Positions 10,701 through 33,746 of a stretch of DNA of 36,930 nt are shown one piece after another. Below the pieces are notes generated by a model, which made no database searches, was not told the origin of the DNA, and worked only from the letters and a program-made list of their open reading frames with translations. The number at the start of each line of letters is the position of its first letter. The first letter of the stretch is position 1. The position numbers and the translations under genes were made by a program. This DNA is from Dehalococcoidia bacterium (GTDB taxonomy: Bacteria; Chloroflexota; Dehalococcoidia; DSTF01; JACRBR01), in the NCBI GenBank assembly GCA_041494685.1, contig JBGQBE010000029.1, positions 1 through 36,930 of the forward strand. Reading direction: 5' to 3'.

Positions 10701-12773
10701 ATGAAAGAGTATGGGACTGAACAACTCCGCAATGTAGTTCTCCTCGGCCATGGAGGTACCGGCAAGACTTCCTTGGCCGAGGCGGCCTTTTTCTCCAGCG
10801 GCGGCACATCCCGCATGGGCCGCGTCGACGACGGCACCACTACCTCCGACTTCGAACCCGACGAGATCAAACGCAAGATCAGCCTCAGCCTCGCCCTCAT
10901 CCCCTGCGAGTGGGCGGACCACAAGATCAACATCATCGACACCCCCGGCTACTCCGACTTCGTCGGCGAAGTGAAGAGCGCGATCCGCGCCGTAGACCTG
11001 GGCGCGATCGTGGTCGATGCGGTCGCGGGCGTGCAGGTGGGCACGGAGATGGCGTGGCGCAACGCCGACCACGCCGGCCTGCCGCGCATCATCGTGATCA
11101 ACCGCATGGACCGCGAGAACGCGAACTTCGACGCGGCCCTGCAGCGCTTGCAGGCGCGCTTCGGCAAGAAGGTGGCGCCGTTGCAGCTGCCGATCGGCGC
11201 CCAGGACTCGTTCTCCGGCGTCATCAGCCTGATCGAGCGCGCGGCGTACATGGGCGACAAGGCCACGCCAGCGGAGATCCCTGCCGACATGGCGGACGCC
11301 GTCGCCGCGGCGCGCGACCAGCTTGTCGAGGCGGTCGCGGAGGCGGACGACGACCTGCTGGCGAAGTACCTGGAGGGCGCGACGCCGACCGCGGAGGAGC
11401 TGACGGCGGCACTGAAGAAGGGCATCGCGGCCGGCATGGTGTACCCCGTGTTCGCCACGTCATCGACGAAGAACATCGGCGTCTCGAAGCTGCTCGACGC
11501 GCTCGTCGCCGACTGTCCGTCGCCCGCGGAAGTGGCGCCACGCACCGCGAACAACTCGTCCGGCGAAGCGCAACTCAAGGCGGACGCGTCGGCGCCGCTG
11601 GCGGCGCTGGTCTTCAAGACGGCGGCAGACCAGTTCGTCGGCCGGCTGACGTACTTGCGTGTGATCTCGGGCACGCTGAAGGGCGACTCACACGTGTGGA
11701 ACGCCAACCACAGCGTCGACGAGCGCCTGGGCCAGATCATCACGCTGAAGGGCAAGACGCAGGATCACGCGCCGGCGCTGGCGGCCGGCGATATCGGTGC
11801 GCTGGCGAAACTGGCGCATACAGTCACCGGCGACACGCTCTGCACGAAGGAGCACGCGGTCACGCTGCCGGCGATCGAGTTCCCGCGCCCGCCCTTCAAC
11901 ATCGCCGTCACGCCGAAGGGCAAAGCCGACGTCGACAAGCTGGGCCCGTCGCTGCATCGCATCGCTGAAGAGGACCCGACGCTGCTCGTCCACCGCGAGG
12001 AGACGACGGGGGAGACGATCATCTCCGGCATGGGCGAGACGCACGTCGAAGTCGCCGCGGAGAAGATGAAGCGCAAGTTCGGCGTCGACGTGGACCTGCA
12101 CGCGCCGAAGGTGCCGTACCGCGAAACGGTGACGGCGCGCGTGGAGTCTGAGTACATCCACAAGAAGCAGACCGGCGGGCACGGCCAGTACGCGCGGGTC
12201 ACCATCACGGTCGAGCCGAACAAGGGCGGCGGCTTCGAGTTCGTAGACAAGGTCGTGGGCGGCGCGGTGCCGCGGAACTACATCCCTGCGGTCGAGAAGG
12301 GTGTGCAGGACGCGCTGCACGAGGGCGCGCTGGCCCACTTCCCGATGGTGGACATCCGCGTGACGCTCACCGACGGCAAGGAGCACCCGGTGGACTCGTC
12401 GGAGATGGCGTTCAAGCTGGCCGGCTCGCAGGCGCTGAAGCAAGGGGCGTTGAAGGCCAACCCTGTGCTGCTGGAGCCGATCGTGTCGATGCGCATCCAC
12501 GTGCCGGAGGCGAACACCGGCGACGTGATGAGCGACCTCAACGGCAAGCGCGCGAAAGTGCACGGCATGACGCCGGACGACGACGGCGCCACCGAGATCG
12601 ACGCCGAGGCGCCGCTGGCGGAGGTGCTGCGCTACTCGACGGACCTGCGCTCGATCACGCAGGGGCGCGGCACCTTCGAGATGGAGTTTGATCACTACGA
12701 AGAGGTGCCGGCGCACATCGCGCAAAAGGTGATCGCGGAGGCGGCGAAGGCGCGCGAAGCGGTGCACGCGTAG
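10701..12773 (+). CDS. fusA2: Elongation factor G paralogue (EF-G2/FusA2-type)
   Basis: Full five-domain EF-G (KKQTGGHGQYA, HPVDSSEMAFK, LLEPI, LRSITQGRG) with divergent GTPase motifs GHGGTGKT, RKISL, DTPGY and NRMD. Not in a str operon. AGGAG RBS. Confidence 0.92.
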   Translation: MKEYGTEQLRNVVLLGHGGTGKTSLAEAAFFSSGGTSRMGRVDDGTTTSDFEPDEIKRKISLSLALIPCEWADHKINIIDTPGYSDFVGEVKSAIRAVDLGAIVVDAVAGVQVGTEMAWRNADHAGLPRIIVINRMDRENANFDAALQRLQARFGKKVAPLQLPIGAQDSFSGVISLIERAAYMGDKATPAEIPADMADAVAAARDQLVEAVAEADDDLLAKYLEGATPTAEELTAALKKGIAAGMVYPVFATSSTKNIGVSKLLDALVADCPSPAEVAPRTANNSSGEAQLKADASAPLAALVFKTAADQFVGRLTYLRVISGTLKGDSHVWNANHSVDERLGQIITLKGKTQDHAPALAAGDIGALAKLAHTVTGDTLCTKEHAVTLPAIEFPRPPFNIAVTPKGKADVDKLGPSLHRIAEEDPTLLVHREETTGETIISGMGETHVEVAAEKMKRKFGVDVDLHAPKVPYRETVTARVESEYIHKKQTGGHGQYARVTITVEPNKGGGFEFVDKVVGGAVPRNYIPAVEKGVQDALHEGALAHFPMVDIRVTLTDGKEHPVDSSEMAFKLAGSQALKQGALKANPVLLEPIVSMRIHVPEANTGDVMSDLNGKRAKVHGMTPDDDGATEIDAEAPLAEVLRYSTDLRSITQGRGTFEMEFDHYEEVPAHIAQKVIAEAAKAREAVHA

Positions 12774-22575: not shown

Positions 22576-23229
22576 TTATGGGCTGACGTTGGCGCCGGGG
22601 TGTGGCGTCCCGGCGGCCGCGGAGGGCGTGCGCTTGATGCCGCCGGACGGGTTGGGGAAGGTCCGCACGGCGCCCGCCTTCAGCGTGCCGCCGGCCCAGT
22701 CGTAGGTCGTCTCGCGCAGCTGACTGGGGCAGCACTCCGGATCGTCCGGCCCGGGGACCGGCTGCGTCATGATCAGCTTGCCGCCCTCGATGCGAACCGC
22801 AAGCCCCGCCGTATCGACGCCCTGCGGAAATTCTCGCAGAAGGAGCTTTACGCCGGAGCCGTCGGGCGTCAGCACGACGAACCCGATGTCGCCCAGCGTG
22901 CCGCCGGAGTCCGCGGGCACCACGGCATCTTCGACACCGTCGCCGGTGAGGTCGGCGTAGAGCACTTCGCGCGCCACGAACTGCCCGCCCGTGTCAGCGA
23001 GCAGGCTCGCGACTGCGGCGCTCTTGCTTAGGTCGATGCCGCGGATGCGGGAGTCGATCGTCGGCTCGGGCGTGAGCACCGGCGGCCGCGAGGACGTGGC
23101 GACGGCGGTGAGACCGCTGGTGGGTGCGGGCGTGGGCGTCTTGCTGCCGGAACTGCTGCGGCAGCCCGCCGCGGCGAAGATCGCCAGGGCCGCGATGGAC
23201 GTGAGTATGAGCGGCGGTCGCGGGGTCAT
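22576..23229 (-). CDS. Putative lipoprotein (LppP/LprE-like C-terminal domain)
   Basis: Signal peptide with an AAAGC lipobox, a Pro/Thr linker, YADLTGDGVEDAVV and DPECCPS. TTGCCG-18-TACACT-6-ATG suggests a leaderless start. Confidence 0.82.
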   Translation of the reverse strand: MTPRPPLILTSIAALAIFAAAGCRSSSGSKTPTPAPTSGLTAVATSSRPPVLTPEPTIDSRIRGIDLSKSAAVASLLADTGGQFVAREVLYADLTGDGVEDAVVPADSGGTLGDIGFVVLTPDGSGVKLLLREFPQGVDTAGLAVRIEGGKLIMTQPVPGPDDPECCPSQLRETTYDWAGGTLKAGAVRTFPNPSGGIKRTPSAAAGTPHPGANVSP

Positions 23230-23275
23230 CGCCTGAGTGTAGGGTGCCGGTCCGCGGCGCGGCAAGGCGCGTTTC

Positions 23276-23304
23276 TTGAAGCGCCGCGCGCGCGTTGCTA
23301 GAAT
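23276..23304 (+). promoter_or_regulatory. Promoter of tRNA-Val
   Basis: TTGAAG, 17 nt, TAGAAT with extended TG. Confidence 0.75.
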
Positions 23305-23317
23305 GCGCCGTCTCCAG

Positions 23318-23393
23318 GGGCGGTTGGCTCAGCTGGTAGAGCGCTTCCTTCACACGGAAGAGGTCACAGGTTCGAGTCCTGTACCGCCCACCA
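23318..23393 (+). tRNA. tRNA-Val(CAC)
   Basis: Acceptor GGGCGGT/ACCGCCC, anticodon arm CTTCC-TTCACAC-GGAAG, GGTTCGAGTCC T-arm, encoded CCA. Confidence 0.97.
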
Positions 23394-23431
23394 TCCTCCT
23401 TCTCCGCGCACGGACCGCCAATCCGGCCGAA

Positions 23432-23460
23432 TTGCAGGCGATCACACCCCTTGCTACAAT
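23432..23460 (+). promoter_or_regulatory. Promoter of the tRNA-Leu/Arg/CAT cluster
   Basis: TTGCAG, 17 nt, TACAAT with extended TG. Confidence 0.75.
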
Positions 23461-23486
23461 CCCGAAGCCGCTCGTAGTGACCCGGC

Positions 23487-23572
23487 GCCGAGGTGGCGGA
23501 ACGGCAGACGCGCTACGTTCAGGGCGTAGTGTCCGCAAGGGCGTGCGGGTTCAAATCCCGCCCTCGGCACCA
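23487..23572 (+). tRNA. tRNA-Leu(CAG)
   Basis: Acceptor GCCGAGG/CCTCGGC, anticodon arm CTACG-TTCAGGG-CGTAG, long variable arm, CCA. Confidence 0.97.
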
Positions 23573-23591
23573 ATCATCGCGAGTATCGCGT

Positions 23592-23667
23592 GCGCTTGTA
23601 GCTCAGTGGATAGAGCGCTACCCTGCGGAGGTAGAGGCCGTGGGTTCGAGTCCCGCCAAGCGCGCCA
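23592..23667 (+). tRNA. tRNA-Arg(GCG)
   Basis: Acceptor GCGCTTG/CAAGCGC, anticodon arm CTACC-CTGCGGA-GGTAG, A20, CCA. Confidence 0.95.
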
Positions 23668-23698
23668 TTTTTCTCCCGCCCGATGCGCCGCATCGCAT

Positions 23699-23774
23699 GG
23701 CAGCGTAGCTCAGGGGTTAGAGCAACCGGCTCATAATCGGTAGGTCGTTGGTTCGAATCCAACCGCTGCTACCA
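23699..23774 (+). tRNA. tRNA with CAT anticodon, non-initiator (Ile2 or elongator Met)
   Basis: Acceptor GGCAGCG/CGCTGCT, anticodon arm ACCGG-CTCATAA-TCGGT. No C1:A72 mismatch and no GGG/CCC stem. The anticodon arm resembles Ile2. Confidence 0.92.
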
Positions 23775-23820: not shown

Positions 23821-26748
23821 TCAGGCCTCCAGCCGGAAGCCCTGCCCGCGCAGCGTGATGATGTACGACCGCTCGCCACCGGCCTGCACGATGCGCTCCC
23901 GGACGCGACGGACGAGCGCGTCAAGCGCCTCTTCGGAGACGCCCTCGGCGTGGGCGTCGGGCCAGACGTGCAGCACTAGCTCCTCGCGGCCCACAACTTT
24001 GCCGGCGCGCTCGTACAGGTACAGCAGCAACCGGAACTGCTCGTTCGAAAGCGGCGGCCGCGCCTCGACGCCCTTCACGTACACCCGCCGCGTCTCAGTG
24101 TCGATGCGCAGCACCGGAGGCCCCTTGGGCGCGCTCACAGGCTCCTGCGGCGCCAGCGGCTCCGCACGGGGCGCTGCGGGCACGTCCGGAGGCGGCTCCG
24201 CTTGCTGAACGGCCGCTTCCGGGCGCCTCGCCCGCCGCCGGCGGTACAGCGTGTGGCCACCGCCCGCGACCGCGAGCGCCAGCGCCGCCGGCACGCCGAT
24301 CGCCACCGCGAGCAGCGGCAAGCCGCCGCCGTCGCCGCTCGCCGGCGCGGGCGCCTCGACGGGCGTCGGCACGGCCGTCGAGGCGGTGACGGTGTCGCCC
24401 TGCACGGTAACGGAGAGCGGCGCGGACGCGAGGGCGCCCACTGCGGCGGTAGCGGTGTAGTGGCCGGGGCCGGCGGCTGTCAGCTGCGCGCCCGCCAGGC
24501 CGTCGACCGTCGACACGGTGGCGGCGCTCGACGCGCCATCGTCCTTCACCAGCCGGAACGAGACGGACGTGCCGTCAGCAACCGGGTTACCGTTGCGATC
24601 GAGGATCGGCCCGGCGACGACGCCCAGCACACGCGTGTCGCGCACGGCGTCGGACGGCTGCCCGAAGATCTGCACAGCGATCGACCGCGCCGGGTCCGGC
24701 TGTGTAGCGTCGGCCACGTCGTAGAAGATGCCGCTCACGCTGACGGGCGGGTGGCCCTTCGGCGTGACATCGCCGAAGAGCGCACGAAAGCCCGCGTCCA
24801 CCGCCGCGTTGGTCTTGCTATAGACCGCGAAGTACGCGGAGAGCTTGCTCACCTCGGTCGAGTCCAGGTGGTACGGCACGTTGTACGCGATGCCGATCAA
24901 GTTCTTGTTGCGCAGATCGACCGGCGGCGCGTCAAGGAAGCGTTTCACCGCGCCCGACGCGGGGCGCGCGTCCGGGTTGTACTCGGTCAGCGCGAAGATC
25001 AGCCACGCGGCGTCCCCGACGGCCTTCGCGGTCGCTGCGTTCGCGGGGTCTGCGGGCTTCGACAGCCACGCGTCGAGCTCGCCGAAGCTGATCGTGCCGA
25101 CGTCCTCCGGTTTCAGGCGCGCCTTGCCGGCGGGCCCGTAGAGCGCGAGCAGTTCGTTTTGTAGGTCGAGCTTCGACTTCACGCGGTAGGGGTAGCAGTC
25201 GTCCCAACACTCGACGATCAGGACCTTCTCGGGCGAGAGCGGGCCGCGCGGCAACCGCGCGCGCAGATCGGCGACGGTCGGCGGCTGCAGCAGCGTCAGC
25301 GCATCCTCCGCCAGCGCGCGCATCTCGTCGCCACCCTGCCCCGCCGCGGCGCTCGCCGCGGCCGGATCGACGGTCGCCTGGCGCAACGCGAGCTGCGGGT
25401 AGAGCTTCAGCTTCGCGGCGAGCACGCGCCGCACGGCATCGTCGGCGCGGCGGCGGAAATCGGGGTCGGCGGCGTACTGTTGGCGCATGTAGGTGATGCT
25501 GTCCTCGATCACCGGGAGCTGGTTGTCCTTCCAGCCGCGGTGGGCGGGATCCTTGTAGAATTCGACCAGCGGCAGCAGGTCGCTGCCGGCCATCAGGGCG
25601 TCGTGCACGACGGTGCGGTTGGGGAACTCGGCCGCGCCCTGCTCCTGCGCGTACCACTTCTTGATCGCGGGCACGCCCAACGAATCGCTCATCACCAGGT
25701 GGTCCGCACGCCAGCCCGCGAACTCGGGCAGCGCGAGCAGCGTCGTGAACGCCGCCGCGTCGAGCGAGAGTGGGCCCGTGAACGCCGCGCTGCCGCCCGG
25801 CACGAAATTCCGATAGCGGATGTGCGACACCATCATCCCGTCGGCCGTGCCGCCGACGTCCGCAGGGTCGCTGCTGTCGACGCGGGCGAAGGGCGCCAGA
25901 TCCGACGCGCGGAGCTGGTCGAGCGACTTATTGACGGTCGGCACTTCGTTGTCCGTCGAGCGGTCGCTGCCGCCGTGGCCAGGAAAGTGCTTCGCGACGG
26001 TGAGCATGCGCCCGCCGCTCCCATCGTGCACGCCGGCGATGAACGCCCGGCCCAACTCGCCAACCCACGCCGGGTCGCCGCCGAACGAGCGGATGCCGAT
26101 ATCGCCGTTGCCACCGGAGCGCGGGTTCTCGAGCACGTCCACGACCGGCCCCAGCAGCATGTTGATGCCGGCCGCCGACAGTTCCTTGCCGACGATGGCG
26201 CCCGTCGCGCGCGCGTGCGCTTTGCTCCACGTCGCGCCGATGGTCATGTTGTTCGGGATGGCGGTGTAGCCGTTGGTGACGTTGCTGAAGGGGAAGAGGT
26301 CGCCCTCGTTGTCGGTGGCGACGAGGAGCGGCAGGTAGTACTCGCCGCCCCCGGCATCGGTGCGGCGCGTGGCGTCGAATGCGCGTTGTTGCAGGCCGTT
26401 CGTCAGTGCAGCGATCTGCGCCGGCGTATCGCCTCGGTTCACGACGTTGCCGTTGCTGGCGGTGACCAGCACCGCGCCGACCTTGTAGTCGCGGATAAGC
26501 GCTGCGACATCGGACACGTCGGACACGTCGGTGCCGACGAAGTTCACCATCACGAGCTGGCCAACGCGCTCGTCCACGCTGAGCGACGCCATCACGCGAT
26601 CGAGGAACGCGTCGCCGGGTGTCTGCGCCGCCGCGTGCGGCTGCGGCGCCGCCCGCAGGGCGACGCAGGCAGCCGCGGCGATGGCGGCAACGCGAAGCCA
26701 GCCACCGCGGCGGCGCCCTGCACTCGGCGTCATGCGCGGTCGTGCCAT
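23821..26748 (-). CDS. Fusion protein: signal peptide, GH3 (NagZ-like) domains, Ig-like domain, TM helix, OmpR/PhoB-type winged-helix DNA-binding domain
   Basis: ERVGQLVMV, ATDNEG, GINMLLGPVVDV, IGIRSFG, KHFPGHG, MMVSH, MSDSL, ALMAGSD; DRNGNPVADGT.VSF; TM followed by RRRRARR; LSNEQFRLL.YLY...GKVV.REEL...VW...LVRRVRERI...YIITLRGQGFRL. ATG 26748 lies 7 nt after CATAAT. Confidence 0.9.
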   Translation of the reverse strand: MARPRMTPSAGRRRGGWLRVAAIAAAACVALRAAPQPHAAAQTPGDAFLDRVMASLSVDERVGQLVMVNFVGTDVSDVSDVAALIRDYKVGAVLVTASNGNVVNRGDTPAQIAALTNGLQQRAFDATRRTDAGGGEYYLPLLVATDNEGDLFPFSNVTNGYTAIPNNMTIGATWSKAHARATGAIVGKELSAAGINMLLGPVVDVLENPRSGGNGDIGIRSFGGDPAWVGELGRAFIAGVHDGSGGRMLTVAKHFPGHGGSDRSTDNEVPTVNKSLDQLRASDLAPFARVDSSDPADVGGTADGMMVSHIRYRNFVPGGSAAFTGPLSLDAAAFTTLLALPEFAGWRADHLVMSDSLGVPAIKKWYAQEQGAAEFPNRTVVHDALMAGSDLLPLVEFYKDPAHRGWKDNQLPVIEDSITYMRQQYAADPDFRRRADDAVRRVLAAKLKLYPQLALRQATVDPAAASAAAGQGGDEMRALAEDALTLLQPPTVADLRARLPRGPLSPEKVLIVECWDDCYPYRVKSKLDLQNELLALYGPAGKARLKPEDVGTISFGELDAWLSKPADPANAATAKAVGDAAWLIFALTEYNPDARPASGAVKRFLDAPPVDLRNKNLIGIAYNVPYHLDSTEVSKLSAYFAVYSKTNAAVDAGFRALFGDVTPKGHPPVSVSGIFYDVADATQPDPARSIAVQIFGQPSDAVRDTRVLGVVAGPILDRNGNPVADGTSVSFRLVKDDGASSAATVSTVDGLAGAQLTAAGPGHYTATAAVGALASAPLSVTVQGDTVTASTAVPTPVEAPAPASGDGGGLPLLAVAIGVPAALALAVAGGGHTLYRRRRARRPEAAVQQAEPPPDVPAAPRAEPLAPQEPVSAPKGPPVLRIDTETRRVYVKGVEARPPLSNEQFRLLLYLYERAGKVVGREELVLHVWPDAHAEGVSEEALDALVRRVRERIVQAGGERSYIITLRGQGFRLEA

Positions 26749-26842
26749 GTACGAGATTATGCGGCTTCTCAATCGCTATCGATAGCTGCGTCTCATGCGC
26801 CGATCACGAAGGTCCGCGCCCAAGCCAGAGGACACCGACGGC

Positions 26843-27955
26843 TCAGGCGGCGGCGCGCAGGTCGGCGGGGATCAGCGGATGGCCGGCCATCGCGGCGAAG
26901 CGTTCGCCGTAGACGGCGGCGGCGGCGCGTGCAGGCCACTGCGCGAGCGTGAAGCGGGCAAACTCTTCTCCCAGCATGTGCCGCTGGACGGCGGGCAGTG
27001 CGAGCAGGCGGTTGATCGCGCCCACGAAGCCGCGCTCATCGCCCGGTTCGACCAGGAAGCCGCTGCGCTCGTGCGCGAGCACCGCCGTCTCGGTGCCGCC
27101 ATCGGCAACGACCGGCGCGCCACTGACGGCGAGCGCGAGCGTGAGAACGGCACCGGCGTCGGGCGCCGGCTGACGCGACGCAGACGGCACCACGAAGGCG
27201 TCGACGCAACGCGATACGGCCGCCAGCAGGCTGGCGTTGAGCGGGCCGCCCAGCACGCGGAAATCGCCCTGTACGCCGACGGCGCGCAGCATCAGCCGCG
27301 CCTCGCGCAGGCTGTCGACGCCGATCAACAAGCAGAGCGGGCGCGACTCGACCTGCGGCAGTACGACGTCGCGGAACCAGCGGATGTCGTTGCGATTCTC
27401 GGGCCACGGCACGCCCAGGACGAGACGGCCGGGGCGCACACCGCGGAGGGCGCGCGCCACGCGGCGTGCGTCGCCGACTCCGGGCCAGGGCAGTTCATGC
27501 GCCGCCGGTCGCACCTGCGTTGTCAGCAGTCGCGGCGCGCGCTCGCGGAGCACCTGCGCCACAGCCGGATCGGAGACGAACCCTTCGTCAAAGCCGGCGA
27601 TCGCGCGGAAAGCCCAGCGGGACCACGGCGTCGCGCGCTTCCCGTCGCTCTCCGACACCGTGACGCTGACGGGCACGCCGTGGCGGCGCTGCAGCATCGC
27701 CCCGACCGGCGCGAACCGCGCGTCGAGCAGGTGAACCGCCTCGAAGCCCTCGGCAGCGATGGCCCGCGCCGCCCGGCGGTACGCGGACGGGGCGCCGGTC
27801 ATTGGCGACACGGCCGGGACGTGATGGACCTCGACATGGGCGCCCAGCGCGCCGAGCAGCGCGTCGCCGCGCGGCCCGAGGGCATCCCGAAAGGAGCCGA
27901 CGACGACGATGCGCGGGCGCGCTGATGCGGCGGACCGGCCACGAGAGAAGTCCAT
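26843..27955 (-). CDS. GT-B fold, GT4-like glycosyltransferase with a degenerate catalytic motif
   Basis: DAFVVPS...LAVSGAPVVA...ERSGFLVEPGD, but no EX7E glutamates. ATG 27955 lies 5 nt after GATACT. Confidence 0.75.
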   Translation of the reverse strand: MDFSRGRSAASARPRIVVVGSFRDALGPRGDALLGALGAHVEVHHVPAVSPMTGAPSAYRRAARAIAAEGFEAVHLLDARFAPVGAMLQRRHGVPVSVTVSESDGKRATPWSRWAFRAIAGFDEGFVSDPAVAQVLRERAPRLLTTQVRPAAHELPWPGVGDARRVARALRGVRPGRLVLGVPWPENRNDIRWFRDVVLPQVESRPLCLLIGVDSLREARLMLRAVGVQGDFRVLGGPLNASLLAAVSRCVDAFVVPSASRQPAPDAGAVLTLALAVSGAPVVADGGTETAVLAHERSGFLVEPGDERGFVGAINRLLALPAVQRHMLGEEFARFTLAQWPARAAAAVYGERFAAMAGHPLIPADLRAAA

Positions 27956-28047
27956 GAGCCAGTATCGGGCGCGCCGTTCGGCGGGTTCAGTAGGCGTTCC
28001 CCCGACCTCTTGCCGGATCCGCCTGAAGTGGTGTGCGGACGGCGGTC

Positions 28048-28494
28048 CTATCCGCCGTTGGCGGTGCGGGCGGCGGCGCGAAAGTGGTCCTGCACGATGG
28101 CCGCGGCGGCCGCGCGGGCGTAGCCCTGCGTAAGTTCCCGCTGCAGCGTCGTCTCTTCGACCCAGACGCGGCGCTGCCCCAGGGGGCGGTGGTACACGCC
28201 TTCGATCTCGCGGACGCCAAGGCCGTCGGCGTCCAGCTCGTAGCGGATGGAGCGTCCGGAGGGACGGATGCAGAACATGGCGCGCGGCTGGACGCCGCCC
28301 AGCTCGCACTCGATCGTGCAGGTGATGCCCTGTTTCTTCGCGAAGTCGGCGACTTCGCGGAAGCCCGGCTCAATCACGGCCTGGACGAGGCGGCGGAAGC
28401 TTGCGGCCAGCGGCGTGCGCACGCCGATCGTGCCGCGACGCAGCTCGTACGTCTGGCGTGCGTGGAGAATGCGTGCTTTCCAGTCCTCGGACAC
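28048..28494 (-). CDS. Hypothetical protein (148 aa)
   Basis: Coding-like codon usage, co-oriented with neighbours. GTG 28494 follows AGGGGTGG; alternative ATG 28515. Confidence 0.7.
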   Translation of the reverse strand: MSEDWKARILHARQTYELRRGTIGVRTPLAASFRRLVQAVIEPGFREVADFAKKQGITCTIECELGGVQPRAMFCIRPSGRSIRYELDADGLGVREIEGVYHRPLGQRRVWVEETTLQRELTQGYARAAAAAIVQDHFRAAARTANGG

Positions 28495-28546
28495 GATCCC
28501 ACCCCTGATCACCATCGGCCGGGCGGCGCGGCAGGCGCCATTCGGC

Positions 28547-30462: not shown

Positions 30463-33400
30463 TCAGCCCCGGCTGGTGGCTTCGCGGTAGAGCTCGTTGA
30501 GTCGTTCTGTGGGCTCTTCGCCAAGCTCATCCTTGAGCAGCTGGCGGAAACGCCGGTAGTGCCGGGCGGCACCCGTCGCGTCGTTCAGGGAGAGATAGCA
30601 ACGCATGACGCCGTAGGCGGCCGCTTCGCTGTACGGGTCCACCGCGTCGAGCACCTTGAAGAGCGTCAACGCTTCCTCGAAGACGCCTTCGCGCAGCTTG
30701 CGAGCCGCCAGTTCGTTCACCGCTTCGATGTAGCGGTCTTCAAGCTCGCGGCGCAGAGGCTCCACCCACTCGCTGTAGGCGGATGCGAGGTACGCGCCCT
30801 TGTAGAGCGCGACCGCTTCCTCCAGCTTCGCCACTCGGACCGCGTCGTCCCGGGCGACCTCCGCGGCGAGCATCGCCTGGTTGAACGCGTCTACGTCGGA
30901 CGAGTACGCGCCCCGCGGGTTCAGCGCGTAGCCGCCATCGGCTCCGCGCACGACGCACTCGTGGAAGAGCGCGCGGCGGAGCCGGTAGAGGCTGGAGTGG
31001 AAGTTGCTGTTGCACTTCGACTCCGGCAGCTCCGGCCACAGCGCGGCGAAGATCTCCTCCTTGCCGACGGACTCACCGCGTGCGAGCAGGAAGAAGAACA
31101 TCTCCTTGCTCTTCTCGCTGCGCCACTCCAGGTCGGACACCTGCCGGTCGCCGACCAGCACGCTCCCGCGCCCCAGGGCGAAGGCGCGTACCGGCGGCAG
31201 CATGTCCGGCGGCGCATCGCGCATGGCACGGCCGCTCGGTGCGGCTTCTGGCCTTCGGCCGCCTTCCGCCAGATCCCTTAGCAGCCCTTCGGCCACGTGA
31301 CGAACTGCGGCATACTCCAGCATCTCCGTCGCCCGCACGGCATACGGGCGCAAGAAGCGGCGATATCCCAGCTGCTCGCAGAGGCGGGTAACGTTCTCCA
31401 ACTCCGCCATCGCCTTCCGCGGCTGGTGACCATCGAACAGCGCCCGCGCGCGGAGGAACGCCGCGATCGCCATCTGGTGCCGGTTGTCCGACGGCTCGAG
31501 CTGGCGCGCCGCGAGGTCGGCTGCCTTCTGGGCGGCGATCGCGTCACCGCGATCGAGGGCAATCTGGGCGTCGACCAACGCGTGCTGCGCGATCCTCGCC
31601 GGCGGATCGGACGGTTTCGGCGCCAGGCTCTTCGCGATCTGCGCGGCCAGTTCGCCCTCTCCGAGGCTGAGCCGCGTGAGCGCGAGGCCGTAACCAATCT
31701 CCGTTATCAGGTACGCTTGTTGTAGGCCGGCGCTGATGGGCTCGACCTCCTGGTAGAGCGCCAGGCTCTCTTCGAAGCGGCCCATGCACCGGTACGTCTC
31801 GGCCATGCCGGCCGTCATATAGGCCTCCTGCTCCACGTTCCCCGTTCCGCGCATGAGCCGCACGCCGCGCTCGTACACCTGCAACGCCTGCTCGAACTCG
31901 CCGATCTCATAGTGGACCATACCCGTGTTGTTGAGCGTCAGGCCGAGATCGAACGTGTTCCCCGCGCGTTCGAACGCCGACTGCGCACGCTGCAGCGCGC
32001 CCAACGCCAGCATCGGGTCGCCGCGCATGCTGTAGCACTGCGCCAATGAGTTGCAGGCGTTGCCGATGCCTTGCAGATCACCCACCTGCTCCAGCATGCG
32101 GCGCGCTTCCTCCAGCTCATCGATCGCCGCGTCGAAGTCGCCGCTCAGGGTGTGTGTGACGCCGATGTTGCGCAGCGCCTGACCCATTAGCGCCGCGTCA
32201 TCGTCGCCTTCCGCCTCCAGCAACGCGCGCGCCTGGCTGAACGCGGCCAACGCCTCCCCGGCGAAGCCCTTGCGACGTAGCAGTTCGCCGCGCACGAAGA
32301 GCGCCCTCACCATCGCTTGCACGTCGCGATCCTGTCTCAGCGCCCGGATCGCGTCGTCGACGCGACGGAGCCCGTCGTCGAGTTCGAGCAGCTTCAACGA
32401 GGCGCGGGCTCGCCACACCTGCAAGTCCGGGCGGGCCGCCTGTGCGGCGGCGGGGAGGCGGTCGATCCACTCGGCCAGTCCACGCGCCTGTCCCTGCTGT
32501 ACCAGCCGCGGCGAGATCTCCTCCAGCGTCTCAGCCGCCTGCGTCCACTCCTCCAGTTCGAAGAGCAGCTCGACCGCCTCGTTCAACATGCCGAAGCGGG
32601 TGAGTGTCTCGGCGGCCTCGCGGCCGGCCCGGGCGAAGCCGTCCGGGTCGTCGGTGCGGAACTGCTGCATGAGCAGCGTGCGCATCAGTTGGTGGCAGCG
32701 GTACATGGGCGGTTCTTCGGCGTGCTGCGTGACGAAGAGGACGCGCGTCGCCGCTTCCTTCAGCAAGCGCTCGCTATCGCGGCGGCCGGTGACGTCGTTG
32801 CAGAGCGCCGGCGTCCACACGGCGAGCAGCGAGATGCTGCGCAGGAACGCGCGCAACTCCGGCGGCACCATGTCCAACGCTTCGCCGTGCACGTAGTCCG
32901 CCAGCGAGAGGCCGACGTTCGGCCCGGCGATGCTGCCGGCTCCGCCGGCGGCTTCCTCGCCCGGCACGCCGGTGCGCCCGGTGCGCGCGTCGCCCGCGCC
33001 GAGGATCAGCGCAGCCGCCCAACCCTCCGTGCGCTCGAACAGCGACTCCGCCTCGTCGTCCGATACCGCGCGGCCAAGCGACCCGAGCAGTTCCCGCACC
33101 TCGCGCGGCGTGAACGCCAGATCCGCCGCGCCGATGCTCATGACCTCGCGCCGCGCGAGCAGGCGCGAGAGCGACGGGATGGGCGGACGGGTGCGCGAGG
33201 TCATGACGACGTGCAGGTTCTCGGGCGCGCGCTCCAGCAGGTAGCCCAGCGTCTCCATCACCTCGGCCGAACCCTCGACGGTGTGTACGTCGTCCAGCAC
33301 GAGGACCACGTAGTCGTCCTGCTCGGCGATGGCGTTGATCAGCACAGTGGCGACCGTGCGCGGCTGCCAGAAGCGCTCGTCGCCGAGCGGCACGACGGTA

Positions 33401-33696
33401 TCGAAGCGGGTGCCGATGGCCGATGCGAGCGCGCGCGCGAACGCGGGAAGTTCGGCGTCCCAGGGGTCGAGCGAGAGCCAGACGGCGGCGAAGTCGGACG
33501 TCTGGTGCCAGTCGACCACGAGCGTGGTCTTGCCGTAGCCGGCGGGCGCGGCGATCAACGTGCCCTTGCCGCCGACGGCCGCATCGATGAACGCGTTGAG
33601 ACGCGGTCGCCGGACGACGTCGGGCCGCCGCCGCGGGACGGCGAACTTGGACGTCGCGACGCCCCCGATGCCCCCGGACCGCGGCGCGTTCTCCAT
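30463..33696 (-). CDS. MalT-like STAND ATPase - TPR - winged helix - BTAD transcriptional regulator
   Basis: SKFAVP..R..VVRRPRL, APAGYGKTT, LVLDDVH, TEGWAAAL, YRCHQLMR; multiple TPRs (ALRNIG, CNSLA, TLNNTG); WRSEKSKEMFFFL...LWPE...LYRLRRAL; DVDAF...LYKGAYL...DPYSE...MRCY...LKDELGEEP. TATAAT lies 8 nt before ATG. Confidence 0.92.
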   Translation of the reverse strand: MENAPRSGGIGGVATSKFAVPRRRPDVVRRPRLNAFIDAAVGGKGTLIAAPAGYGKTTLVVDWHQTSDFAAVWLSLDPWDAELPAFARALASAIGTRFDTVVPLGDERFWQPRTVATVLINAIAEQDDYVVLVLDDVHTVEGSAEVMETLGYLLERAPENLHVVMTSRTRPPIPSLSRLLARREVMSIGAADLAFTPREVRELLGSLGRAVSDDEAESLFERTEGWAAALILGAGDARTGRTGVPGEEAAGGAGSIAGPNVGLSLADYVHGEALDMVPPELRAFLRSISLLAVWTPALCNDVTGRRDSERLLKEAATRVLFVTQHAEEPPMYRCHQLMRTLLMQQFRTDDPDGFARAGREAAETLTRFGMLNEAVELLFELEEWTQAAETLEEISPRLVQQGQARGLAEWIDRLPAAAQAARPDLQVWRARASLKLLELDDGLRRVDDAIRALRQDRDVQAMVRALFVRGELLRRKGFAGEALAAFSQARALLEAEGDDDAALMGQALRNIGVTHTLSGDFDAAIDELEEARRMLEQVGDLQGIGNACNSLAQCYSMRGDPMLALGALQRAQSAFERAGNTFDLGLTLNNTGMVHYEIGEFEQALQVYERGVRLMRGTGNVEQEAYMTAGMAETYRCMGRFEESLALYQEVEPISAGLQQAYLITEIGYGLALTRLSLGEGELAAQIAKSLAPKPSDPPARIAQHALVDAQIALDRGDAIAAQKAADLAARQLEPSDNRHQMAIAAFLRARALFDGHQPRKAMAELENVTRLCEQLGYRRFLRPYAVRATEMLEYAAVRHVAEGLLRDLAEGGRRPEAAPSGRAMRDAPPDMLPPVRAFALGRGSVLVGDRQVSDLEWRSEKSKEMFFFLLARGESVGKEEIFAALWPELPESKCNSNFHSSLYRLRRALFHECVVRGADGGYALNPRGAYSSDVDAFNQAMLAAEVARDDAVRVAKLEEAVALYKGAYLASAYSEWVEPLRRELEDRYIEAVNELAARKLREGVFEEALTLFKVLDAVDPYSEAAAYGVMRCYLSLNDATGAARHYRRFRQLLKDELGEEPTERLNELYREATSRG

Positions 33697-33746
33697 CGAA
33701 AGAGATTATACGGCCGCGAGGATCACGCTGTCGCCGGCCGGCAAGC

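Follow-up and report, generated by a model that had tools for sequence, protein, structure and literature searches.

What might a bacterium do with an extracellular glycosidase that is tied, through a single membrane helix, to a DNA-binding domain? This question is raised by a gene on the minus strand of contig JBGQBE010000029.1 (assembly GCA_041494685.1) from a Dehalococcoidia bacterium of the Chloroflexota, of which we analysed positions 1 to 36,930 of the forward strand (hereafter the window, meaning the whole stretch of 36,930 nucleotides). A single uninterrupted open reading frame (ORF) extends from stop to stop over 23821..26772; read from the ATG at 26748 to the stop codon at 23821-23823, it encodes a protein of 975 residues (P0001), with a glycoside hydrolase family 3 (GH3) module towards its N-terminus and an OmpR-type winged helix-turn-helix (wHTH) at its C-terminus. 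With moderate confidence, we interpret this fusion protein as a type-I transmembrane one-component regulator, in which the GH3 ectodomain would bind, and probably turn over, terminal N-acetylglucosamine (GlcNAc)-type sugars and in this way control DNA binding by the tethered wHTH. Domain order, topology signals, conservation of both ends of the protein and the exchange of output domains among relatives all support the interpretation as a transmembrane one-component regulator. For the cell, the probable outcome would be a switching of genes by GlcNAc-type glycans without a separate signalling relay.

The first-pass annotation, made from the DNA letters, had proposed the following series of elements in one frame, and ORF, Pfam, hydropathy and structure-model analyses recovered each of them at the proposed positions. 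From the N-terminus to the C-terminus, they are:

26626..26748, minus strand: signal peptide, residues 1-41 (RRRGGW, hydrophobic core, PHAAA/QTP), from the sequence, the orthologue pattern and a model helix at 14-33; cleavage presumed
25549..26625, minus strand: GH3 catalytic (beta/alpha)8 domain, residues 42-400, with KHFPGHG, D355 and D266, from Pfam PF00933, the alignment to YbbD and the columns of a 120-sequence alignment
24679..25548, minus strand: second GH3 domain (alpha/beta sandwich), residues 401-690, with invariant E513-C514-W515, from a weak PF01915 match, Foldseek and the invariant columns
24391..24678, minus strand: immunoglobulin (Ig)-like beta-sandwich stalk, residues 691-786, from a Big_1 match below cut-off and seven confident strands at 692-783 in the AlphaFold2 model
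24244..24390, minus strand: outer linker rich in Pro, Ala and Gly, residues 787-809, and transmembrane (TM) helix, residues 810-835, with a mid-helix G-x-P, from hydropathy, the model and the consensus ...LALAIGxPxA...LYRRRR
24115..24243, minus strand: RRRRARR stop-transfer cluster and disordered Pro/Ala cytoplasmic linker, residues 836-878, from sequence and hydropathy, with a predicted local distance difference test score (pLDDT) <50
23824..24114, minus strand: OmpR/PhoB-type wHTH, residues 879-975, from PF00486 and the AlphaFold2 model

Pfam places Glyco_hydro_3 (PF00933) at residues 58-392, with 141.2 bits against a cut-off of 27 (E 6.7e-41), which makes the protein a member of the GH3 family, and Trans_reg_C (PF00486) at residues 899-973, with 57.4 bits against a cut-off of 26.2 (E 1.6e-15). 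Two further matches lie below threshold, Big_1 at 715-781 (E 0.0019) and a weak Glyco_hydro_3_C (PF01915) at 624-672. No Response_reg match was obtained with Pfam along the 975 residues, in line with the earlier claim that a receiver is lacking; for this reason, the protein does not belong to the OmpR-family response regulators. Together with its winged-helix fold, the Trans_reg_C score above cut-off does place the C-terminal domain within that DNA-binding family.

Hydropathy identified a single strong internal TM segment at residues 810-828, followed by GGGHTLYRRRRARR, with a Kyte-Doolittle peak of 2.37. This corresponds to ~24244-24321 of the window and matches the ~24247-24321 that had been proposed for the helix. 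At the N-terminus, a basic and a hydrophobic stretch precede an A-x-A/Q site, a pattern shared by the 13 orthologous loci that were read. The positive-inside rule and the signal peptide agree with each other and support a type I topology with the ectodomain outside and the wHTH, and hence the C-terminus, predicted to be cytoplasmic, as the first-pass annotation had it. The AlphaFold2 model, built on 59 orthologues, has a mean pLDDT of 86.6 and a predicted template-modelling score of 0.78. Confidence is high for the ectodomain (41-786) and the wHTH (876-975), the membrane segment is modelled as a helix at 813-837, and the linkers on either side of the membrane are disordered. Within the wHTH, strands at 880-883 and 888-891 are followed by helices at 902-913, 921-928 and 939-955 and by a hairpin at 963-973, all with pLDDT >90.

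The fusion is old and widespread. In the database comparison, which comprises the 120 best clusters, one of them being the window's own, both Pfam domains occur together in 91, at 39-100% identity; the others are five C-terminal fragments with Trans_reg_C only and 24 clusters without Trans_reg_C on record, and two clusters (P0072 and P0073) end after the Ig domain. The whole architecture recurs in many independent assemblies at 39-85% identity. GTDB yielded 16 loci, in records titled Dehalococcoidia, Chloroflexota or 'uncultured Chloroflexia' metagenome-assembled genomes, and 13 of them match through to residue 974/975. A search of the order covered 93 genomes and gave a match in 40; since its first pass was stricter, these counts are lower bounds, and the tallies include an unpublished genome (G025). 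Among the order's 92 other genomes, at least 23 have a full-length, single-frame, stop-free copy, at 40-76% identity and with single-contig genomes among them. The family of the window accounts for 13 of these 23 copies, a second family for nine and a third for one, which means that the protein has been kept in no fewer than three families of this uncultured Chloroflexota order. The junction of wHTH, TM helix and ectodomain is also spanned, with no indels reported, by contigs from further sediment-metagenome runs, which belong to different studies:

24056-25035: junction-spanning contig (X3 record 9), no gaps
24159-24384: junction-spanning contig (X2 record 2)

Short joints of 20-21 letters and loose ends in the run contigs were taken as other organisms or repeats. 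The view that the fusion is real, rather than an artefact, thus stands on the clusters, the genomes of the order and bridging contigs from two independent runs; presence in relatives had been named beforehand as a test, and the search of clusters and order genomes found the architecture widely.

A -10-like box, GCATAATC, lies at 26755..26762 on the minus strand, 7 nt 5' of the ATG at 26748, and is the only copy in the window; its promoter function is putative. Of 14 orthologous upstream regions (window included), 13 contain GCATAAT, and in 11 of the 13 a start codon follows 5-8 nt downstream. This suggests that the fusion gene is transcribed from a promoter of its own, into an mRNA that is leaderless or nearly so. 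The ATG at 26748, already chosen in the first-pass annotation, is preferred over a TTG at 26772 because the conserved GCATAAT(C) box sits 7 nt before the ATG; the TTG lies upstream of the box, and the orthologues start 5-8 nt past it. An ungapped alignment anchored on the box contains a weak cTaTCg-like element ~18 nt upstream of it. Just 5' of the box, at 26776-26785, stands a perfect 10-bp palindrome, CTATCGATAG, which we rejected as an operator: it is not kept as a palindrome in the other loci.

Which parts of the protein does selection hold on to? Averaged over 58 orthologues, identity to the query is highest in the wHTH (0.79), followed by GH3 domain 1 (0.70), GH3 domain 2 (0.65), the Ig stalk (0.47), the TM helix (0.43) and the linkers (0.26-0.29); the leading value of the wHTH indicates that both ends of the protein are under purifying selection. 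The cytoplasmic linker has a length of 17-45 residues across 59 orthologues (median 31, Pro plus Ala 46%), and in the window protein only ~43 disordered residues separate the TM helix from the wHTH. When residues 805-975 were compared by phmmer with 1.84 billion representatives, 4,361 matches were obtained at E <= 0.001, of which 31, chosen by rank and length and not at random, were scanned with Pfam. Outside the GH3 fusions and fragments, these 31 included nine proteins of FHA plus Trans_reg_C (~215-286 residues), one Pkinase-FHA-Trans_reg_C, one cyclase-Trans_reg_C, several STAND/AAA-Trans_reg_C and only one protein with a receiver. The genome of the window contains 17 Trans_reg_C matches; the 16 ORFs other than the fusion gene are 13 of receiver type, one FHA-wHTH, one BTAD/AAA and one without a second domain at the threshold used. 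A close paralogue in this genome was ruled out, as no wHTH there exceeds ~33% identity to that of the fusion. Given its receiver-less relatives, we place the wHTH in a receiver-less modular branch of the OmpR-type fold. FHA plus Trans_reg_C is the architecture that dominates its nearest non-GH3 relatives among the scanned matches. The genome's own protein of this kind (L033; G000:C25, ~10889-11098, minus strand) has 238 residues and, being 26% identical, is not the closest.

The strongest computational argument for a sensory role comes from relatives that share the ectodomain, the TM helix and the basic cluster and differ at the cytoplasmic end. Besides the wHTH, we encountered:

P0078: Pkinase at 819-1065
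P0102 and P0103: TCAD9/APH at ~880-1294
P0105-P0111 type: ends directly after the C-terminal TM helix, no output

A C-terminal kinase behind a TM helix is an unusual layout for bacterial Ser/Thr kinases. From the 120 sequences, 8 in which the ectodomain had fewer than 600 residues were dropped, and a midpoint-rooted FastTree phylogeny was built of the other 112 ectodomains. In this tree, the kinase form clusters with two wHTH forms (Shimodaira-Hasegawa-like support 0.93) within a six-tip clade (support 1.0), TCAD9 and anchor-only forms make up a 16-tip clade (support 0.99), and wHTH forms fall on either side of the midpoint root. That signalling outputs have been exchanged while the ectodomain stayed the same speaks for the ectodomain as the signalling input.

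What could such an ectodomain recognise? By sequence, the nearest solved proteins are GH3 beta-N-acetylglucosaminidases, namely 4zm6, 6k5j and Bacillus subtilis NagZ (YbbD). With Foldseek, the top matches of the model are B. subtilis NagZ/YbbD (4gyj, crystallised with GlcNAc-MurNAc; E 2.5e-30, target template-modelling score 0.74) and the Paenibacillus GH3 GlcNAcase 6k5j (template-modelling score 0.83); as the alignments span ~640-690 columns, they cover both GH3 domains. The fusion protein shares with YbbD and the other two-domain GlcNAcases (3bmx/4gyj, 6k5j, 4zm6) export, the two-domain fold, KHFPGHG and an aligned nucleophile. The latter is D355, an Asp in the S/T-D-x-L segment typical of GH3 nucleophiles, which HMMER aligns with chain position 318 of YbbD, the residue mutated in D318N entries such as 4gyj. 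Counted over the non-gap residues of each column in the 120-sequence family alignment, the putative sugar-site residues are nearly invariant; the values for these, and for R263, are as follows:

D146: 105/112
E148: 112/112
R220: 113/113
K253: 111/115
H254: 114/115
R263: 115/115
D355, nucleophile: 115/116

HMMER also aligns KHFPGHGGSDRSTD with KHFPGHGDTDVDSH of YbbD. Since the catalytic dyad of NagZ occupies chain positions 232/234, its counterparts in the fusion protein are S264 and D266. We read the ectodomain as a distinct GH3 clade, related to the two-domain NagZ, which has probably kept the sugar pocket and the nucleophile and has a carboxylate in place of the His. A nucleophile combined with a carboxylate at the His position is the pattern that would be expected of a conventional hydrolase, and the invariant E513 of domain 2 is an alternative acid/base candidate. 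That the ligand may be a GlcNAc glycan or a muropeptide is suggested by the likeness to NagZ/YbbD only. Compared with YbbD, the fusion protein is ~22% identical and has in addition the Ig stalk, the TM helix and the wHTH.

Membrane one-component regulators are known mainly from the ToxR/CadC type, with small sensor domains and an N-terminal DNA-binding domain. ToxR, CadC and TcpP share with the fusion protein a single polypeptide, a single TM helix, a cytoplasmic OmpR-type wHTH without receiver, and an extracytoplasmic sensor. However, the wHTH of ToxR and CadC is N-terminal. The fusion protein departs from their layout because its order, by Pfam and hydropathy, is reversed (sensor, TM helix, wHTH), an inversion that the first-pass annotation had pointed out, and their small periplasmic domain contrasts with its glycosidase ectodomain of 745 residues. 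By the definition of Demey et al. (2023), under which one protein has to combine a DNA-binding domain with one or more TM regions, the protein does qualify as a transmembrane transcription regulator (TTR; PMC10269533). The supplements of that census list 3,459 TTRs with Trans_reg_C among 50,302 proteins, 15 'Glyco_hydro_18,LytTR' proteins and smaller numbers of other glycosidase families; Glyco_hydro_3 does not occur in these supplements, where the sole prefix matches are Glyco_hydro_39 (PMC10269533). As far as the census listing allows a comparison, the Glyco_hydro_18,LytTR proteins likewise have the glycosidase first, the DNA-binding domain last and one TM region, within 740-761 residues, but with GH18 and LytTR where the fusion protein has GH3 and an OmpR-type wHTH (PMC10269533). 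No published description of a GH3-wHTH fusion was found in the full-text literature, subscription journals and InterPro architecture tables lying outside the scope of the search. The initial statement that no such fusion had been described thus holds for the full-text literature and for the census supplements, but the Glyco_hydro_18,LytTR proteins make the class less unprecedented. The relatives bear unspecific names in the databases: 'beta-N-acetylhexosaminidase', 'glycoside hydrolase family 3 N-terminal domain-containing protein' and 'winged helix-turn-helix domain-containing protein'.

Membrane regulators that respond to outside glycans have been described in Vibrio ChiS, in TfoS and in the hybrid two-component sensors (HTCS) of Bacteroides (PMC11856585, PMC3903286 and PMC3404733). 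The sensor domains of these proteins are not glycosidases, and ChiS and the HTCS contain kinase or receiver modules. Their DNA-binding domains stand on the cytoplasmic C-terminal side, as in the fusion protein, but are of other types (AraC-type). A NagZ-like GH3 module with a role in transcription is known from Candida albicans: Ngs1 is such a module fused to a GNAT acetyltransferase and serves as a GlcNAc sensor for transcription, its catalytic His having been lost to Leu, with no hydrolase activity detected (PMC5063960). On that description, Ngs1 and the fusion protein share a NagZ-like GH3 lacking the dyad His, which in Ngs1 is the sensing input of a transcription-controlling protein. Unlike the fusion protein, Ngs1 as described there is eukaryotic, resides in cytoplasm and nucleus without a TM region, and acts through histone acetylation via Rep1 and not by direct DNA binding; moreover, its Leu stands where the fusion protein has a conserved Asp or Glu. 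The present family sets itself apart by a full glycosidase module outside, an inverted orientation and natural variants with kinase or TCAD9 outputs. It is a tractable system in which to ask how information on ligand or turnover travels from an enzyme-type fold across a single TM helix, could show how the little-studied monoderm Chloroflexota monitor GlcNAc glycans of the cell wall or the environment, and may serve synthetic biology as a compact glycan-responsive part.

How would the regulator work? After export and probable cleavage of the signal peptide, the NagZ/YbbD-like GH3 module, the Ig-like stalk and the short outer linker would face the cell wall, and one TM helix, the basic cluster and a flexible Pro/Ala linker of ~30-40 residues would hold the receiver-less winged helix in the cytoplasm. 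The GH3 pocket would bind, and probably also cleave, terminal beta-linked GlcNAc-type sugars, for which peptidoglycan turnover products or chito-oligosaccharides are candidate sources; the genome encodes peptidoglycan synthesis, with four penicillin-binding protein and eight Mur-ligase matches. Occupancy of the pocket might act across the membrane on the receptor's oligomeric state or conformation. This could enable the wHTH domains to bind at repeated DNA sites and so alter transcription, whether still tethered to the membrane, as ToxR and CadC are, or after release. In this scheme, we infer the identity of the ligand, the catalytic competence, the DNA binding with its targets and the mode of activation.

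Several observations weigh against this scheme. NagZ's Asp-His dyad (KHFPGHGxxxxD[ST]H) is replaced by S264 and D266. At the His position (266), Asp occurs in 93 and Glu in 17 of 115 sequences, hence a carboxylate in 110/115, and the residue at the Asp position (264) varies (S 56, G 17, D 17, A 11, L 7). The NCBIfam NagZ equivalog PRK05337 scores 81.6 bits against a cut-off of 207, so that the earlier assignment to GH3 stands at the level of the Pfam family but does not extend to a canonical NagZ. The dyad is described as essential for NagZ catalysis (PMC5063960, there attributed to Litzinger et al., 2010). With the dyad absent and the equivalog score far below cut-off, substrate and chemistry may differ from those of NagZ. 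As the anchor-only sister clade indicates, the module can evidently function also as an enzyme that is simply anchored. The surroundings add little in favour: no functionally telling neighbours accompany the fusion gene in the 16 loci, and no convincing repeated operator was seen upstream of it in the ungapped alignment anchored on the -10-like box. NagA is present in the genome (244 bits) but lies elsewhere, among Fpg, glyoxalase, MetK and AdoHcyase, and MurQ gave no match over cut-off in this genome. Finally, the fusion is interrupted in some relatives: in three genomes (G005, G010 and G031) the ectodomain and the TM/wHTH part are in different frames, and in a fourth (G026) the copy has one in-frame TAG. 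These interruptions may be assembly errors or real decay.

The interrupted copies break between the Ig stalk and the TM/wHTH part, for which a genuine split is another possible cause. Regarding targets, a GlcNAc or muropeptide catabolic cluster was considered and set aside as none was usable: NagA has unrelated neighbours, MurQ is below cut-off, and for GH18 the genome has a marginal match only, at 37 bits.

The exchange of outputs also invites a bolder proposal, which we put forward tentatively and regard as possible rather than probable. The family might be a modular set of 'glycosidase receptors' in Chloroflexota, in which an active extracellular GH3 would report the turnover of its own substrate through one TM helix to interchangeable outputs (wHTH, Ser/Thr kinase, TCAD9). 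The wHTH form could then be viewed as a short-circuited version of a pathway leading from a kinase through phospho-Thr to an FHA-wHTH protein, because the nearest relatives of the wHTH elsewhere are FHA-wHTH proteins. If true, bacteria would have a class of enzyme-coupled transmembrane input that has not been described before. For the kinase form P0078, the relevant comparison is with the PknB-type PASTA kinases and with BlaR1/MecR1, in which cell-wall-related extracytoplasmic modules, some of them derived from enzymes, signal through one TM helix to a cytoplasmic effector. PknB has its kinase at the N-terminus and the PASTA domains outside, whereas the kinase of P0078 is C-terminal (819-1065); BlaR1 has a sensor like a penicillin-binding protein and a protease as its output.

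Among the alternatives to a transmembrane regulator, the one that survives best is that the protein is primarily a membrane-anchored extracellular exo-beta-glycosidase, engaged in wall turnover or scavenging, with the wHTH in a secondary role such as autoregulation or nucleoid/membrane positioning; the glycan would then be a substrate and not the signal for a regulon. The nearly invariant nucleophile and the acidic residue at the acid/base position resemble those of an active hydrolase, the fusion gene is the sole GH3 match in a genome of 3.29 Mb that is 97.6% complete, a conserved promoter-like box of its own precedes it, and the sister clade consists of the ectodomain with a TM anchor only. 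Yet the wHTH, as the best-conserved segment, is retained to the full depth of the family, at 39-41% overall identity, and where relatives replace it they do so with signalling modules and not with random tails. We therefore consider the anchored enzyme unlikely; in addition, it is compatible with a sensor if the protein is a 'trigger enzyme'. Should the ectodomain be an anchored enzyme only, the finding would shrink to an unusual domain fusion.

Alternatively, the protein might be a pseudo-enzyme receptor, in which the GH3 module binds its ligand without turnover and a regulated cleavage in or near the TM helix frees a soluble wHTH. Intramembrane proteases favour helix-destabilising features, and the TM consensus does have a G-x-P and runs of Gly, with linkers that the model predicts to be disordered on both sides of the membrane. 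Loss of the dyad His recalls Ngs1, but the replacement here is a conserved carboxylate and not a neutral residue such as the Leu of Ngs1, and the nucleophile is invariant. The kinase and TCAD9 variants, moreover, have no obvious need for release, and no protease gene is linked to the fusion within the window. We regard this explanation as quite improbable. As for an assembly or frameshift artefact, in which a small wHTH gene would have been joined to a separate gene for a secreted GH3, it might have been suspected from the relatives with parts in different frames or truncated after the Ig domain, but for this window it is refuted, to the point of deserving almost no credence, by the clusters, genomes, GTDB loci and independent contigs given above and by the lack of independent support for a free-standing wHTH of ~100 residues preceded by a TM helix.

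Turning from the transmembrane regulator to its neighbours, the same strand upstream of the fusion gene encodes a glycosyltransferase of family 4 (GT4), two small ORFs of no assigned family, a BTAD/TPR/AAA regulator, ClpX and ClpP. A functional link to the GT4 gene was rejected: it is adjacent in 6 of the 16 loci only, and this adjacency says little on function because those six share the entire neighbourhood and are not independent. The other features recorded around the fusion gene are:

30463-33705, minus strand: protein of 1,080 residues with AAA, TPR/MalT-like repeats and, at the C-terminus, a BTAD; the syntenic loci have it too; no wHTH match at the threshold used
26843-28309, minus strand: GT4 ORF, 488 residues from GTG 28309, overlapping a separate conserved ORF of 155 residues at 28048-28515 (minus strand)
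23318-23774, plus strand: four tRNA genes (Val-CAC, Leu-CAG, Arg-GCG, Met-CAT), downstream of and convergent with the 3' end of the fusion gene
22576-23265, minus strand: ORF of 229 residues whose N-terminus resembles that of a lipoprotein (…AAAGC), without Pfam match, conserved close to the fusion gene in 6 of the 16 loci

The GT4 gene more likely starts near 27955 (MDFSRG…), since the glycosyltransferase domains begin at about residue 155 of the ORF. By the tRNA cluster, at 23276-23304, is the sole match to a sigma-70-like promoter (TTGAAG-17-TAGAAT) in the scanned region.

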